The translations under genes and the position numbers were made by a program. The notes below the pieces were generated by a model, which did not search any database, was not told the DNA's origin, and saw only the letters and a list, made by a program, of their open reading frames with translations. A stretch of DNA of 64,000 bases from Minisyncoccota bacterium (lineage in GTDB: Bacteria; Patescibacteriota; Minisyncoccia; Phycocordibacterales; UBA9973), in assembly GCA_017991395.1 (NCBI GenBank), contig JAGOQQ010000006.1, forward strand, positions 66 to 64,065, in the 5' to 3' direction. Shown here piece after piece: positions 3,334 to 60,692 of the stretch. The stretch's first letter is position 1. Each line of letters begins with the position of its first letter.

Positions 3334-3975
3334 CTACTCTGTTGTTTCTGCTGTTTCTTCTTCTTGTTTTCCTTTCTTTTCAACTTCGATTGCTGAGAGA
3401 TCTGCAACTGGTGCTTCTTCTTCTTTTTCTTCTTTGATACCAGTGACTGATGCAACCACTTCATCCGCTTCACTTACGAGTGCAACTCCCTTTGGAAGTT
3501 TGATGTCTTTGAGTGTGATTTGATCATCAACATTTTCAAGTGGTGACAAATCTACTTCGAGTGTATGAGGAAGATCTTTTGGAAGCGCTTTTACTTGTAC
3601 TTCATGAAGTGCTTTTACCAATACGCCACGTCCACCTTTCTCAGCTGGTGATTCACCTGTAAACTCAATAGTTACAGAAACTTCAATTTCTTTGTTCATA
3701 TCCACCACAATAAAGTCTGCGTGCATAGGAGTCCCTGTAATCGGGTTTTTGTGGATATCATGAATCAATACATCAAAGTTTCCATCTGGAGTCTTGAGTG
3801 TGATTGTTGAAGATTCTCCTGCTTCTTTGAGCACTTTGATAAAGTCTTTTGTCGATACTGAAATAGATGTCGTTGGTTTGTTGTTACCATAAAAAACCGC
3901 CGGAATCTTCCCTGTCTGACGAATATTATCGAGAGAATCTTTTTTCTCTCTTTTTTCTGCAATAAGTGTAAACAT
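3334..3975 (-). CDS. rplY: 50S ribosomal protein L25 / general stress protein Ctc (long form)
   Basis: L25 N-domain (GKIPAVFYG...) plus Ctc-type C-terminal extension with an acidic tail. Start set at the internal Met (MFTLIAEK); the ORF track extends to 4062. Confidence 0.8.
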   Translation of the reverse strand: MFTLIAEKREKKDSLDNIRQTGKIPAVFYGNNKPTTSISVSTKDFIKVLKEAGESSTITLKTPDGNFDVLIHDIHKNPITGTPMHADFIVVDMNKEIEVSVTIEFTGESPAEKGGRGVLVKALHEVQVKALPKDLPHTLEVDLSPLENVDDQITLKDIKLPKGVALVSEADEVVASVTGIKEEKEEEAPVADLSAIEVEKKGKQEEETAETTE

Positions 3976-4116
3976 AGAGACTATAATAATATATTTTGAT
4001 TCATAAGTAAAGGGACAGGAATTCTCCATCAAAAAAACACGTATACCCCCCTTTATTGCCAATTCTTATACCCTAACAACAAAATAAGCATTTCTTTCCA
4101 ATCCTCCTCATTTGGA

Positions 4117-4140
4117 GCTTTGCATAAGTGTTCCCTTAAC
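4117..4140 (+). repeat. Conserved 24-mer GCTTTGCATAAGTGTTCCCTTAAC (copy 1 of 3 near-identical, plus one degenerate copy)
   Basis: Near-identical copies at 40929-40952 and 56949-56970, and a degenerate copy at 43851-43868. All lie on the plus strand in intergenic DNA. Confidence 0.7.
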
Positions 4141-4276
4141 ACGGATATTTGCCTGCTGGCAAATTCCTATACTCAGACCGTCGTCTTCCGTAATGTTCCA
4201 AATAAAGGAGGATTCTGGTTTTGGAAACCAGATGAATTATACAAACCCATTCCTTCGGCGATTGTTCCAAGAATTT

Positions 4277-4315
4277 TCCGCGTCTTGTCCGCGTTAAGTC
4301 CGCATCTGTCCGCGT
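4277..4315. repeat. 11-bp-periodic TCCGCGT box array in the 3' UTR of the FAD-oxidase gene
   Basis: tccgcgtcttg tccgcgttaag tccgcatctg tccgcgtctaa; the same type of array recurs at four other gene 3' ends. Confidence 0.65.
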
Positions 4316-16072: not shown

Positions 16073-16122
16073 AATTAAAATTTTGTGTCTTTTGAATATA
16101 TTTCAATCTCTCTCGGTGTGTC

Positions 16123-16182
16123 GTGCTGAATTTATTTCAGCACCTCACAAATCAAGATCCTGAAACAAGTTCAGGATGACAC
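16123..16182 (+). repeat. Hairpin repeat pair: GTGCTGAATTTATTTCAGCAC + GATCCTGAAACAAGTTCAGGATGACAC (family D copy)
   Basis: The same GATCCTGAAAC..AGGATGACAC module occurs at 40766-40790 (and inverted at 40623-40647) and at 55609-55658. Confidence 0.65.
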
Positions 16183-26191: not shown

Positions 26192-26233
26192 TCCGCGTCA
26201 TCATCCGCGTAAGTTCCGCGTTTATCCGCGTCC
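26192..26233. repeat. 11-bp-periodic TCCGCGT box array in the 3' UTR of ftsI
   Basis: tccgcgtcatca tccgcgtaagt tccgcgtttat ccgcgtcctg immediately after the stop of the minus-strand PBP gene. Confidence 0.65.
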
Positions 26234-40120: not shown

Positions 40121-40266
40121 AATTTAATTATTACTATAGTAATGCCTTATATGGTAGCACATAATCCAATAAATTCCCAGCAAGTCTATACGACAAACGG
40201 GGAAAACGAAAAAACGGCACCCGAAGGTGCCATTTATATATCTAGTCAACATATGACATATTTCTG

Positions 40267-40515
40267 CTATTTTATACTCTTTATTAGCTCCAATTTTTCT
40301 GACCGTGACATTGATTTTATCCTTGCTTCTGCTTTTGACGAAGTTGATCGATTTTTGAATTTTTTAGAATATACCAACGCGACTGGACGACGAACTCGAG
40401 TATACTTTGCTCCCTTTGAAGAAGAATTGTGCTCGTTTACTCGACGATTAATATCGGTGGTGATTCCGGTATAGAGTGTGCCGTCTTTGCACTTGAGGAT
40501 GTAGAGGAAATACAT
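40267..40515 (-). CDS. GIY-YIG nuclease-domain protein (UPF0213/YhbQ-like), copy 1
   Basis: YFLYILKCKDGTLYTGITTDINRRVNEHN GIY-YIG motifs; 82 aa. Confidence 0.75.
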   Translation of the reverse strand: MYFLYILKCKDGTLYTGITTDINRRVNEHNSSSKGAKYTRVRRPVALVYSKKFKNRSTSSKAEARIKSMSRSEKLELIKSIK

Positions 40516-40622
40516 AAATTAACTATAACAGAAGAAGGTAGTACGTGGATCGTAGAACGCGGAACGTTAAACGCAAAAGTACTAAACACAGGAACACTAA
40601 AACACGACATCATAGCATTCGC

Positions 40623-40790
40623 GTCATCCTGAACTCGTTTCAGGATCTCAAGAATTTTTTCCCCTCCTTGTTGAGGAGGGGTGCCTGAAAGGCGGGGTGG
40701 TGTGCCTCCCCTTGAGGGGAGGTGTCCGAAGGACGGAGGGGTAAGAATGAATTGAATGAATTTTAGATCCTGAAACGAGTTCAGGATGAC
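40623..40790. mobile_element. MITE-like 168-bp element with perfect 25-bp terminal inverted repeats (GTCATCCTGAACTCGTTTCAGGATC ... GATCCTGAAACGAGTTCAGGATGAC)
   Basis: The TIRs are exact reverse complements. The interior carries two GC-rich hairpins (CCCCTCCTtgttgAGGAGGGG; CCTCCCCttgaGGGGAGG) in an otherwise AT-rich context, with no ORF. TIR-like half-sites recur at 16156-16182 and 55609-55658. Confidence 0.45.
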
Positions 40791-40846
40791 ACGGGATTCT
40801 GCATTTCACTATCGCCTATAAACTATTCGCCATCACCTTTATTCTT

Positions 40847-40907
40847 TTACCCCTCCTCACATTCACTTCGTGTAATGTCGTCCTCCCCTCTAGGAGAGGC
40901 TTGAATT
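40847..40907 (+). repeat. 60-nt repeat (family C) copy 1: TTACCCCTCCTCACATTCACTTCGTGTAATGTCGTCCTCCCCTCTAGGAGAGGCTTGAAT
   Basis: 58/60 identical to 57921-57980. It shares the TCACTTCGTG + CCTCC hairpin architecture with 14541-14575 and 40976-41020. Confidence 0.7.
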
Positions 40908-40928
40908 CTGAATTCCCTACCCGCTATA

Positions 40929-40952
40929 GCTTTTCATAAGTGTTCCCTTAAC
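40929..40952 (+). repeat. Conserved 24-mer GCTTTTCATAAGTGTTCCCTTAAC (copy 2)
   Basis: See 4117-4140. Confidence 0.7.
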
Positions 40953-41020
40953 CTATCACCTATTTCAACCTCACCAGTCACTTCGTGTCCTCCTCTCCTG
41001 TCTGGGAGAGGAGGGATTCT

Positions 41021-41062
41021 TTCGGCGTTTGTCCGCGTTAAGTCTGCGCACAGTCAGCGTCT
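41021..41062. repeat. TCCGCGT-type box array in the 3' UTR of the ABC-F gene
   Basis: ttcggcgtttg tccgcgttaag tctgcgcacag tcagcgtct directly after the ABC-F stop. Confidence 0.55.
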
Positions 41063-42574
41063 CTACCCTTTCATTTCCTCCAACAATTCCCCAAGCTCCT
41101 TGTGTCTCGGAAGCACTGTCTGATTGTGAACCACCCAAAACATAGTTGGTGCAAATGCTTCGATAAATTCGTAATCATGACTCACAAGTAGAATTGTACT
41201 TTTTGATGTCTTACACGCTTCAAGTAGGATTTCCCAAGTAACTTCATCAATATGGTTTGTAGGCTCGTCGAGAATTATCAAATCTGGTCGCTGTCCAAAC
41301 ACAATCGCAAATCGAAGTCGCATTCTCTCCCCTCCTGAAAGATTTTTAATCGGTGAAATCATTCTTGGTGTATCAAATTTCATCATACCTAGAACTGAGC
41401 GCGCTTCTTGATCAATCATATTGAGCTTCTGACACACAATATCCACCGCGCGAAGTTCTGGATCAAATTGTGCATGCTGATCAAAGTAGGCATAGCTGAT
41501 TCCATTTCCAAATGTCGCCTCTCCTTTTGTAAATGGAAGTTCTCCTGTGAGACATTTTAGGAATGTTGATTTACCTGAACCATTTCGTCCAAGAAGTACC
41601 ACCTTGTCACCTGTACGAATTTCCAAATCCACATTATCAAAAATCCTTTTCTTCGGCTCTGGAAATTCAAACATTCCCTTCACTACTTTCAATACGAGCT
41701 TTCCTCCGTGCAAGCCTTGTTCTGTACTTGCGATTTTGATTTTGTTTTGAGCTTCATCTGGTCTACCGTTTTCTTTTGCTTCTTTCTTAAGTTGTGCGAG
41801 TTCTTCCTTTGCACGTTTGTAAGCCGATACTTCTTTTCCACGAAATGCTTTCTGTTGCAAAATTACAATCGCCGAAGAAAGCTGTTTGATTCTTTTTGAA
41901 CGCACATCATGATCACGCTGTAGTCCAGCAATTCTCTCTACTTTCGTTTGAATATAATCATCGTAGTCACCTTCAGAAATAAATATTTTTCCTTGCACTA
42001 TTTCGCCAATTTTTGTCGCAACACCATCGATAAGCAATCTATCGTGAGAAATAAAAATAATAGCCCCACGAAATTCTTCTAGAAGTCGCACGAGTTCCAC
42101 ACGACTCACAATGTCGAGATGGTTTTCTGGTTCATCGAGAAGTAGGAAGTCCGGCGCGAGTGCAAACGCACACGAAAGCGCAAGAATCTTTTGTTGTCCT
42201 CCTGAGAGTCTCCCACACTTTGTATCTTTGTGCTTTTCAACATGAAATCCGAGCATCTTGGCAAACATATGTACTTTTTTTGAAAGTGTTTCTCCTGCTT
42301 TTTCTTTGATGAATTCTTCAATCAAAAGATCCTGATGTGAGTGGTCAAACTCCTGAGGAACAAACACAAATCGTATATGTCCTTGCTTTTCTACTCTTCC
42401 TGAATCTGGCTCAAGTTCACCACAGATAATTTTCAACAGCGTTGATTTCCCTGCTCCGTTTTCTCCGAAGATACAAATTCGCTCATCTTCCGCACAACGA
42501 AAAGAAACGCCCTGTAAAATGGGCTTTTCATTGACTGCGTATTCAACATTTTTGACTGATATAGTCTTTTGCAT
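41063..42574 (-). CDS. ABC-F family ATPase (two ABC domains, no TMD; translation-associated EttA/Uup-like)
   Basis: Two Walker A (GENGAGKST; GRNGSGKST) and two LSGG signature motifs with an inter-domain linker; 503 aa. Confidence 0.85.
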   Translation of the reverse strand: MQKTISVKNVEYAVNEKPILQGVSFRCAEDERICIFGENGAGKSTLLKIICGELEPDSGRVEKQGHIRFVFVPQEFDHSHQDLLIEEFIKEKAGETLSKKVHMFAKMLGFHVEKHKDTKCGRLSGGQQKILALSCAFALAPDFLLLDEPENHLDIVSRVELVRLLEEFRGAIIFISHDRLLIDGVATKIGEIVQGKIFISEGDYDDYIQTKVERIAGLQRDHDVRSKRIKQLSSAIVILQQKAFRGKEVSAYKRAKEELAQLKKEAKENGRPDEAQNKIKIASTEQGLHGGKLVLKVVKGMFEFPEPKKRIFDNVDLEIRTGDKVVLLGRNGSGKSTFLKCLTGELPFTKGEATFGNGISYAYFDQHAQFDPELRAVDIVCQKLNMIDQEARSVLGMMKFDTPRMISPIKNLSGGERMRLRFAIVFGQRPDLIILDEPTNHIDEVTWEILLEACKTSKSTILLVSHDYEFIEAFAPTMFWVVHNQTVLPRHKELGELLEEMKG

Positions 42575-44595: not shown

Positions 44596-44656
44596 TTCCG
44601 CGTGATGTCCGCGTCTGTCTGCGACTATTGCTGGGGTCTTTGAGCTAGAACCGTGG
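44596..44656. repeat. TCCGCGT boxes followed by the block TTGCTGGGGT-CTTTGAGCTAG-AACCGTGG shared with the tRNA-Gln 3' flank
   Basis: TTGCTGGGGT (10 nt) and CTTTGAGCTAG (11 nt) also occur within 30 nt of each other at 53389-53417, where TTGCTGGGGT is the 3' end of tRNA-Gln. Confidence 0.55.
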
Positions 44657-55696: not shown

Positions 55697-55724
55697 GTTC
55701 TGCGTTCTACGCTCTACGTTTTCT
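55697..55724. repeat. GTTCTAC-type heptad tandem repeat (x4) straddling the dus stop codon, followed by 11-nt-periodic GTTCGCGTA boxes inside the dus 3' end
   Basis: gttctgc gttctac gctctac gttttct; the same heptad family occurs at 57985-58041. Confidence 0.55.
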
Positions 55725-56937: not shown

Positions 56938-57000
56938 TCCGCGTCTAAGCTTTGCATAAGTGTTCCCTTATCCGCGACTGTCCGCGTTTATTCCGCGTTC
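56938..57000. repeat. Composite: TCCGCGT box + 24-mer GCTTTGCATAAGTGTTCCCTTA (copy 3, 56949-56970) + three further TCCGCGT boxes at 10-11-nt spacing
   Basis: catccgcgtctaa GCTTTGCATAAGTGTTCCCTTA tccgcgactg tccgcgtttat tccgcgttc; lies between the ftsQ-like 3' end and the dus 5' end. Confidence 0.65.
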
Positions 57001-57920: not shown

Positions 57921-57980
57921 TTACCCCTCCTCGCATTCACTTCGTGTAATGTCGTCCTCCCCTCTAGGGGAGGCTTGAAT
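57921..57980 (+). repeat. 60-nt repeat (family C) copy 2
   Basis: 58/60 identical to 40847-40907. Confidence 0.7.
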
Positions 57981-57984
57981 CAAT

Positions 57985-58041
57985 GTTCTAGTGTTCTACG
58001 TTCTACGCTTTACGATCTACGTTCTACGTTATACGTCTTAC
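57985..58041. repeat. GTTCTAC heptad tandem repeat (x8, degenerate) running into the serS stop codon
   Basis: gttctag t gttctac gttctac gctttac gatctac gttctac gttatac gtcttac. Confidence 0.65.
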
Positions 58042-60300: not shown

Positions 60301-60407
60301 TCTTTTATCTTCTAAGTTTGCAAAAAATTTCTAACTATAGTATTACTTAGCAAGTAATTGCGAACTCACAGATATATTTCGTACGAGCTCGTGTATACTA
60401 TTTGTGT

Positions 60408-60692
60408 ATGAATCCCGTTAGAGACAACAAGTATTACTATGTCTATGTGTTAAGAAGTATTACTCTTAAGTTGTTTTATACTGGCTATACAAGTGATTTA
60501 CGGAAGCGCTTGAAAGAGCATAACGACAAAAAGTCTACATGGACAAAAAGTCGTGGTCCGTTTGCCTTAATTTATTATGAAGCGTGCATTAATGAAAAAG
60601 ACGCAAGGTCTAGAGAATTATATTTAAAAACAGGAATGGGCAAACGGTATATAAAAAATCGTTTAAAGCGCTTCCTGTCTCTAACGGGATGA
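60408..60692 (+). CDS. GIY-YIG nuclease-domain protein (UPF0213/YhbQ-like), copy 2
   Basis: YYVYVLRS...LFYTGYTSDLRKRLKEHN motifs; start set at ATG 60408. Confidence 0.7.
   Translation: MNPVRDNKYYYVYVLRSITLKLFYTGYTSDLRKRLKEHNDKKSTWTKSRGPFALIYYEACINEKDARSRELYLKTGMGKRYIKNRLKRFLSLTG

Follow-up and report, generated by a model that had tools for sequence, protein, structure and literature searches.

What kind of element is the 168-bp segment with perfect 25-bp inverted ends (positions 40623-40790) that lies between two genes of a Minisyncoccota bacterium (GenBank assembly GCA_017991395.1, contig JAGOQQ010000006.1)? The segment belongs to an intergenic gap at positions 40516-41062 (547 bp) of a 64,000-nucleotide stretch of this contig, which is called the window here and is the scope of all comparisons made within the source organism; loci used for comparison with it are labeled with L-numbers. 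The gap is flanked by the stop of an ABC-F ATPase gene (41063-42574, minus strand), whose 3' end adjoins it, and by the start of a gene (40267-40515, minus strand) encoding an 82-amino-acid single-domain GIY-YIG protein of the UPF0213/YhbQ type. A first-pass annotation had described the gap as gene-free, and it is, as its only open reading frames (ORFs) are short, overlapping ones of 47-67 amino acids, none of which is credible as a gene. The same annotation had likened the segment to a miniature inverted-repeat transposable element (MITE) or, alternatively, to a gene for a structured RNA. The comparisons described here lead to a different answer. The segment is probably a head-to-head pair of CGTC/TGTC-tagged repetitive extragenic palindromic (REP) units within a mosaic resembling the Neisseria intergenic mosaic elements (NIMEs) and the bacterial interspersed mosaic elements (BIMEs) of enterobacteria, and its hairpins would act as single-stranded DNA structures that are recognized by a nuclease and seed rearrangements.

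The two arms of the segment, at 40623-40647 and 40766-40790, are complementary at all 25 of 25 positions, as originally described, and remain 94% complementary when extended to 32 nt. The arm 25-mer matches the window three times, once outside the segment (16156-16180), and no match occurs in 100 shuffles. Each arm taken alone belongs to a perfect 28-nt hairpin unit, consisting of YGTC, an 8-bp stem (ATCCTGAA/TTCAGGAT), a 5-nt loop, and a tail of the form C-N-N. The left unit (40622-40649, plus strand) reads CGTC tag, stem ATCCTGAA, loop CTCGT, stem TTCAGGAT, and tail CTC, and the right unit (40764-40791, minus strand) has a TGTC tag, the same stem and loop, and the tail CTA. Together, the left and right arms make up a homodimer with its tags facing outward. 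This arrangement fits the definition of the CGTC-tagged REPs, in which a CGTC tag (often TGTC, with CCTC tolerated) is followed by an 8-9-bp stem starting with AT, a loop of 4-5 nt, and an unpaired 3-nt tail with the consensus CCA (Di Nocera, De Gregorio & Rocco, PMC3733652). Members of this class, which include Neisseria dRS3 and Rickettsia RPE-4 and RPE-6 and were listed for five phyla in 2013, are multi-copy sequences found predominantly as head-to-head dimers with the tags outside and without an associated transposase (PMC3733652).

Judged by their sequence, the window units have all features of CGTC-tagged REPs save the tail consensus, and the lengths of their stems and loops would place them in sub-family CGTC-2. 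They share the CGTC or TGTC tag, the 8-bp stem beginning with AT, the 5-nt loop, and the unpaired 3-nt tail, and, like the published units, they form mostly tags-outward dimers, are intergenic, and lack a linked transposase. They differ in having the tails CTC and CTA rather than CCA, in a spacer of 114 bp in place of the usual 20-100 bp, which exceeds that of all 45 tags-outward pairs that we sampled (98 nt or less), and in a host phylum, Patescibacteria, that lies outside the five listed in 2013. A scan of the 64-kb window for GTC followed by a stem-loop recovered four such units, arranged as two pairs, both with the tags outward. The second pair, a heterodimer at 16119-16181 (both strands) upstream of gatB, has its units 7 nt apart, with TGTC-GTGCTGAA-TTTAT-TTCAGCAC-CTC at 16119-16146 (plus strand) and TGTC-ATCCTGAA-CTTGT-TTCAGGAT-CTT at 16154-16181 (minus strand). 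Of the four tags, that at 40622 is CGTC and those at 40791, 16119, and 16181 are TGTC; the 8-bp perfect stem ATCCTGAA/TTCAGGAT recurs in three units, while the fourth has GTGCTGAA; the loops are CTCGT, CTTGT, or TTTAT; and the tails CTC, CTA, and CTT agree with the CCA consensus at the first C alone.

Between the paired units lies the 114-bp spacer (40650-40763), which contains two tandem units of ~42 nt followed by an A/T-rich run. Each ~42-nt unit comprises a GC-rich hairpin, then a mini-hairpin, then GGGGT. The GC-rich hairpins are the two that the first-pass annotation had placed inside the element, namely CCCCTCCT-TGTTG-AGGAGGGG at 40660-40681 and CCTCCCC-TTGA-GGGGAGG at 40705-40722, and the mini-hairpins are GCCT-GAA-AGGC and GTCC-GAA-GGAC. 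The REP pair brackets two GC-rich stem-loops, which are specific to this lineage. Folding of a 182-nt stretch here as single-stranded DNA gave -49.4 kcal/mol (z = -8.6). The loop is CTCGT in both arms, and CTTGT in every orthologous unit and in the copy at 16154, indicating that both arms changed together while their mutual complementarity was kept. Such a joint change could be accounted for by either a recent duplication or gene conversion inside a long hairpin or cruciform.

The hairpin is by no means peculiar to this organism. In a scan of one genome per species, GTCATCCTGAA-N5-TTCAGGAT was found in at least 120 genome loci, compared with a chance expectation of ~4 by our own arithmetic. 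The matches listed include loci of Patescibacteria (Gracilibacteria, Saccharibacteria, Nomurabacteria, and other groups of the candidate phyla radiation, CPR), together with Sphingomonadales, Bacteroidota, Treponema, Gastranaerophilales, Elusimicrobiota, Campylobacterota, and Firmicutes. Loci of different phyla have the nearly identical hairpin alone in common, and their flanks are unrelated. The hairpin is also present in 54 viral contigs, and unannotated copies reside on sphingomonad, Treponema, and Sulfurovum plasmids. A full-text literature search for the hairpin sequence and for the peptides that it would encode returned no papers.

The design was defined more closely by a census of the genome loci, which contained 221 units. 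GTC is preceded by T in 101 of them and by C in 96, the stem begins with AT in 202, and the tails begin with C, with CCA third commonest behind CTC and CTA. Tags-outward pairs (45) outnumber tandem (14) and tags-inward (9) pairs, their spacing ranges from 4 to 98 nt, and the partner hairpin often has a different yet internally complementary stem. Relative to flanking genes, the hairpins of genomes are oriented without bias (29 sense, 31 antisense), and those of viral contigs are antisense in 26 cases and sense in 11, a figure dominated by a few multi-copy contigs. Several viral contigs (L140, L142, L157, L159, and L143/L132) contain three to nine copies, all on one strand; the contig represented by L143 and L132 (IMGVR_UViG_3300028845_000195) has nine plus-strand copies in 29.8 kb, and no such strand bias is seen in genomes. 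At seven loci from several phyla (L025, L036, L038, L079, L083, L110, and L117), one or more direct repeats of the 5' half alone, consisting of the tag and left arm (e.g., GTCATCCTGAAC) with a period of ~16-26 nt, stand ahead of the complete hairpin, as if produced by slippage or abortive copying.

Among relatives, the gap proved to be plastic. Orthologous loci were obtained by exact-protein look-ups, and their ABC-F proteins are 98% (L236), 97% (L237), 90% (L238), and 90% (L122) identical to that of the window. L236, L237, and the L238 group all have TGTC-ATCCTGAA-CTTGT-TTCAGGAT in a 350-420-bp gap upstream of the GIY-YIG gene, and in L122 the gap is 46 bp and contains no hairpin. In L237, only the gene-proximal unit is present, adjoining a CCTCC...GGAGGGG-AAAAA hairpin as in the window, and L236 has the distal unit together with a proximal unit that is interrupted by another hairpin. 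Positions 55-294 of the L237 gap are the reverse complement of positions 53-295 in L238 (87.7% identity over 244 nt), and this inverted block ends in a REP unit on one side and in a TGTC-tagged CTCTCC hairpin on the other. In a further locus, L242, the GIY-YIG protein is the same as that of L238, and homology between the two loci starts exactly at the hairpin tag, TGTGTCATCC; upstream of this point, L242 has a gene encoding uracil-DNA glycosylase in place of ABC-F, and an internal stretch of 85 bp is deleted. The mosaic has accreted between the ABC-F and small GIY-YIG genes of one genus-level clade of Paceibacteria (Patescibacteria/CPR). On the far side of the GIY-YIG gene, L236 and L238 contain an extra ORF of 124-125 amino acids before the SWIB gene, which the window lacks.

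Perfect inverted ends on a non-coding unit of this size naturally suggest a classical MITE, that is, a non-autonomous insertion sequence (IS) derivative whose 25-bp terminal inverted repeats (TIRs) are recognized by a transposase and whose insertion leaves target-site duplications. Part of that comparison stands, in that the arms represent a dispersed and probably mobile palindromic class whose outward pairs are multi-copy elsewhere. When metagenomes were scanned for copies of this hairpin paired with their tags outward at a spacing of 105-135 nt, 58 loci were recovered. In three metagenomes, the pairs formed multi-copy families in which the spacers are conserved and the flanks unrelated (Ga0207124, six copies; Ga0172371, two; Ga0224525, two), so that comparable hairpin-bounded units can spread as units. 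In this respect they recall REPINs, which Bertels and Rainey reportedly described in 2011 as REP doublets mobilized by RAYT transposases, and in which two inverted REPs able to form one long hairpin replicate as a doublet; the doublets of these other metagenomes are likewise multi-copy. REPINs are, unlike the units described here, GTAG-tagged and RAYT-linked; no RAYT gene was seen here, and we know of none for CGTC units. Nor does the segment itself behave as a transposon. The target-site duplications and additional copies that would be looked for in a MITE are lacking: the flanks (...gcattcg/CGTC and GACA/cgggatt) have no common direct repeat, the 168-bp composite occurs once in the 64-kb window, and its spacer matches that of 0 of the 58 metagenome elements. 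Each arm is palindromic in itself and is found alone (L237, L238) or with a different partner stem (16119-16181), and related genomes have a single arm at the same site. Transposase genes are not enriched near 140 hairpin occurrences, in agreement with earlier findings for the class (PMC3733652); the ORF clusters around these occurrences are housekeeping only, including ABC transporters, histidine kinases, single-stranded DNA-binding protein, and Mur ligase. This screen took ORFs of at least 90 amino acids, and small GIY-YIG genes were for that reason searched separately by tblastn. The 168-bp unit is not a MITE of the transposase/TIR type, an origin to which we give very little credence, and its perfect 25-bp inverted ends, tempting as they are to read as transposon ends, are two self-folding REP units. 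At the opposite extreme, the gap might hold a chance cluster of unrelated palindromic terminators with neither a common origin nor a common mechanism, as its position at the 3' end of a gene and the high G+C content of several hairpins could suggest. This is scarcely credible, given that the arms are identical to sequence from many phyla; the shuffles, distribution, and census contradict it as well. On the gene strand, the hairpins all lack a T-tail. A canonical intrinsic terminator is used by the organism 32 nt past the GIY-YIG stop (40212-40235, minus strand; GGCACC-TTCG-GGTGCC and a T-run).

Two further explanations would assign the gap a regulatory role. A structured RNA, either a small RNA gene or a cis-acting 3'-untranslated region (3'-UTR) or leader that regulates the ABC-F or GIY-YIG transcript at the level of stability, termination, or translation, is suggested by the folding of the gap as RNA, which is far better than that of shuffled sequence (z = -5.4), and by the paired loop change, which leaves the arms complementary to each other. 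REPs are also generally located 3' of genes (PMC3733652). A promoter and terminator scan of the gap found nothing on the gene strand, and with no intrinsic terminator after ABC-F and the canonical one after the GIY-YIG gene, the hairpins are probably transcribed; as such, they may stabilize or punctuate the transcript. There is a weak similarity to the whalefall-1 RNA motif (RF01762), which likewise has a CUCYCC-loop-GGRGAG hairpin followed by a G-rich tail and gives three weak matches in the gap. These matches reach at most 23.8 bits against a gathering threshold of 37, they concern the GC-rich modules and not the inverted ends, and Rfam searches at gathering and permissive thresholds returned nothing else but tRNAs. 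The block is missing from L122 and inverted relative to the genes in L238, hairpin orientation in genomes is random, and the nuclease SsnA, discussed below, acts on single-stranded DNA and not on RNA. These findings speak against an RNA gene, the other possibility raised in the first-pass annotation, and make a structured RNA in either form unlikely as the principal explanation. The oppositely oriented block of L237 and L238, ~244 bp long and with both ends inside palindromic hairpins, might instead represent an invertible promoter switch that governs the GIY-YIG gene through flipping of the segment bounded by the REP and CTCTCC hairpins. The ends of the block are not inverted repeats of each other, however, all seven of seven hairpin-containing contigs of the L238 type have a single orientation, and no recombinase gene is adjacent. 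In addition, the block does not include the conserved TATAGT beside the ATG, an element that even the 46-bp gap of L122 has, and a switch of this kind is accordingly most improbable.

The tagged REP pair that we favor finds its closest mechanistic parallel in the substrates of the Ssn nucleases. SsnA is a 94-amino-acid single-domain GIY-YIG protein of family cd10448 that binds and cuts the dRS3-containing NTS (CGTCATTCCCGCGMAVGCGGGAATCYRG) only as single-stranded DNA (Chenal et al. 2025, PMC11893778). The NTS has the layout CGTCAT-stem-loop-stem-ATC and is cut alongside; cleavage depends on its GTC and binding on the C that follows the palindrome, and 71% of ssnA homologues have motifs of this kind nearby (PMC11893778). 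Members of the repeat class in both Neisseria and Wolbachia are cut by such small GIY-YIG single-strand DNA nucleases. The window units have the same layout, including both the critical GTC and the C after the palindrome, and a small single-domain GIY-YIG gene is located 108 nt from the hairpin pair, although the hairpins are found at one side of this gene only. By analogy, the hairpins would act mainly as single-stranded DNA structures, extruding during replication or DNA uptake. A trans-acting, hairpin-specific nuclease could then recognize a site beside the GTC tag, much as the Ssn GIY-YIG proteins do on NTS/SRM sequences, and nicks at the tag might seed duplication, inversion, and recombination, giving rise to the mosaic and to the rearrangements among relatives. 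If the gap is transcribed, the hairpins could double as stable structures of a 3'-UTR.

Several observations weigh against this account. Cleavage and movement of the hairpins are putative, and the count of four units is that of the 64-kb window. The published SRM pattern, HGTCWYN(0-2)YYVSBRHN(0-5)WNVSBRGN(0-2)RNCYNB, has no match in the window and fails for all three variants of the unit, whereas it matches the NTS; the window units are therefore not filed as SRM in that operational sense. No Ssn-type gene occurs in the 64-kb window, and the neighboring GIY-YIG protein is, by sequence comparison, of the UPF0213 type and not of the cd10448-like Ssn type. It scores 78-83 bits to UPF0213 proteins versus 28-45 bits to Ssn-like ORFs, the latter having been found with a consensus that reproduces the published Y6/Y17/E64 numbering but is not the actual SsnA sequence. 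Finally, three more distant CPR homologues of the GIY-YIG protein (~71-74% identity) have no hairpin nearby.

The closest solved relatives of the 82-amino-acid protein are the UPF0213 proteins EF2693 (1ywl, E = 1.4e-19) and BH0048 (1zg2, 1e-17), and NCBIfam offered no family for it. Its residues Y5/Y15/E63 differ in tyrosine spacing from the Y6/Y17/E64 of SsnA, and it is without the C-terminal segment that extends SsnA. Hairpins of the window subtype do occur beside Ssn-like genes, on both sides in L048 and downstream only in L098, and in L203 an Ssn-like gene is situated between tagged half-stems. At L203 (8660-9130), this gene is bracketed by tagged palindrome halves (cGTCATTGCGAGAC ... GTCTCGCAATGACg) and by a second inverted pair, which places it in effect in the loop of a giant hairpin and resembles the arrangement of an insertion sequence. 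Found by tblastn in 3 of ~230 loci, Ssn-like genes are not clearly more frequent than expected by chance. Homologues of the window GIY-YIG protein were detected by tblastn in L122 and, weakly, in L048, and in none of the other loci searched.

The hairpin block lies upstream of orthologues of the 82-amino-acid GIY-YIG gene in four related lineages. A general linkage of UPF0213 genes and hairpins across CPR was considered and rejected, with L122 and the three distant homologues lacking a nearby hairpin, and the linkage is for this reason confined to one genus-level clade, in which it is most simply explained by common ancestry. A functional tie between the gene and the hairpins is possible but unproven. 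The specific proposal that the UPF0213 mini GIY-YIG protein of this Paceibacteria clade, rather than a cd10448 Ssn protein, is the hairpin-specific single-stranded DNA nuclease for the adjacent CGTC-type hairpins strikes us as unlikely. The window contains a second small single-domain GIY-YIG gene (60402-60692, plus strand; a 96-amino-acid ORF, Pfam E = 1.3e-17), located between ORFs of 287 and 751 amino acids, which is of a third type distinct from UPF0213 and Ssn-like proteins; no tagged hairpins flank it. Directly upstream of one distant GIY-YIG homologue, L250 contains a tRNA-Ser-like sequence (2395-2490).

The rest of the gap is occupied by modules that give it the character of a mosaic. 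Next to the REP pair is the 60-nt family C repeat (40847-40906, plus strand), which the first-pass annotation had recognized and which consists of ACCCCTCCTCA, a TCACTTCGTG hairpin, and a CGTC-tagged hairpin, CCTCCCC-TCTA-GGAGAGG. A second copy, 97% identical, is found at 57921-57980 (plus strand) and is followed at 57994-58040 by a heptad array of seven TTCTACG units. The assembly L121 (Logan SRR11088448, 2525-2723), made independently from short reads of the same organism, breaks inside family C, consistent with repetition of this family in the genome. The conserved 24-mer of the first-pass annotation is present as a 25-mer, AGCTTTTCATAAGTGTTCCCTTAAC, at 40928-40952 (plus strand), with three window copies in all (4116, 40928, and 56948). 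The second hairpin unit of that annotation corresponds to a second TCACTTCGTG unit followed by a TGTC-tagged hairpin, CTCCTCTCC-TGTCTG-GGAGAGGAG (40975-41016, plus strand), and forms one end of the block whose orientation is reversed in L238. Exact matches to TCACTTCGTGT are located at 40863, 40978, and 57937. A further inverted-repeat element of the window (4096-4222) has the arms CCAATCCTCCTCATTTGGA and TCCAAATAAAGGAGGATTCTGG with the conserved 25-mer in its loop, and a related copy with a different loop is found at 3680-3800 in the L236 gap, between the two hairpins of that gap.

Short boxes complete the inventory. Three ACGCNGA boxes, belonging to the TCCGCGT family and given here in gene-strand reading, lie at 41022-41060 (minus strand) immediately 3' of the ABC-F stop. 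TCCGCGT boxes are indeed enriched across the window, with 18 occurrences versus 2.8 expected, but the array reported for the gap was a generous description, because the gap has one exact plus-strand box (41032) between two degenerate ones and a single minus-strand box (40557). Short arrays with 10-12-nt spacing are found at 4277-4315, 26192-26231, 41032-41038, 44597-44614, and 56938-56998, mostly directly 3' of the stops of minus-strand genes, with one array ~160 nt downstream; in gene-strand reading, ACGCGGA recurs about once per helical turn. These boxes could be a lineage-specific 3'-end or protein-binding motif. At the other end of the gap, the heptad array TTCCGCG-TTCTACG-ATCCACG (gene-strand reading; 40544-40564, minus strand) closely precedes the conserved TATAGT-N7-ATG of the GIY-YIG gene. 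Tandem heptad arrays adjoin hairpin modules there, at 55699-55718, in the array that follows family C, and in the L236 and L238 gaps, and a hairpin is again followed by a heptad array at 57.9 kb and in L238. NIMEs and the BIMEs of E. coli are likewise intergenic patchworks in which short palindromic units bracket or alternate with other repeat modules, and the CGTC-1 units of Neisseria are interleaved with other repeat families (PMC3733652). The modules of the window, namely family C, the 25-mer, the heptad arrays, and the ACGCGGA boxes, are by contrast specific to this lineage.

Our findings extend the CGTC/NTS-type hairpin class, with a nearly invariant core, to Patescibacteria, for which no earlier report of such hairpins was found in the literature, and to the Melainabacteria-like Gastranaerophilales, Elusimicrobiota, Firmicutes, and viral contigs. 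The published SRM pattern does not capture the very widespread ATCCTGAA variant, which is present also in Patescibacteria and viral contigs. The orthologous gaps, in which the block is absent, present, or inverted and in which synteny breaks at the tag, provide a comparative series for hairpin-driven intergenic change in a reduced genome, and the clade-specific tie of the block to a UPF0213-type GIY-YIG gene, like the wide spread of the ATCCTGAA variant outside the SRM pattern, goes beyond the literature consulted. If the protein encoded by this gene did act on the adjacent hairpins, the gene and hairpin block would constitute a semi-autonomous unit that nicks at the tag and causes inversions, duplications, and recombination locally; in these DNA-scavenging bacteria, its substrate might be imported single-stranded DNA. 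The Ssn principle would then reach a second large, uncharacterized GIY-YIG family, YhbQ/UPF0213, and the CPR.

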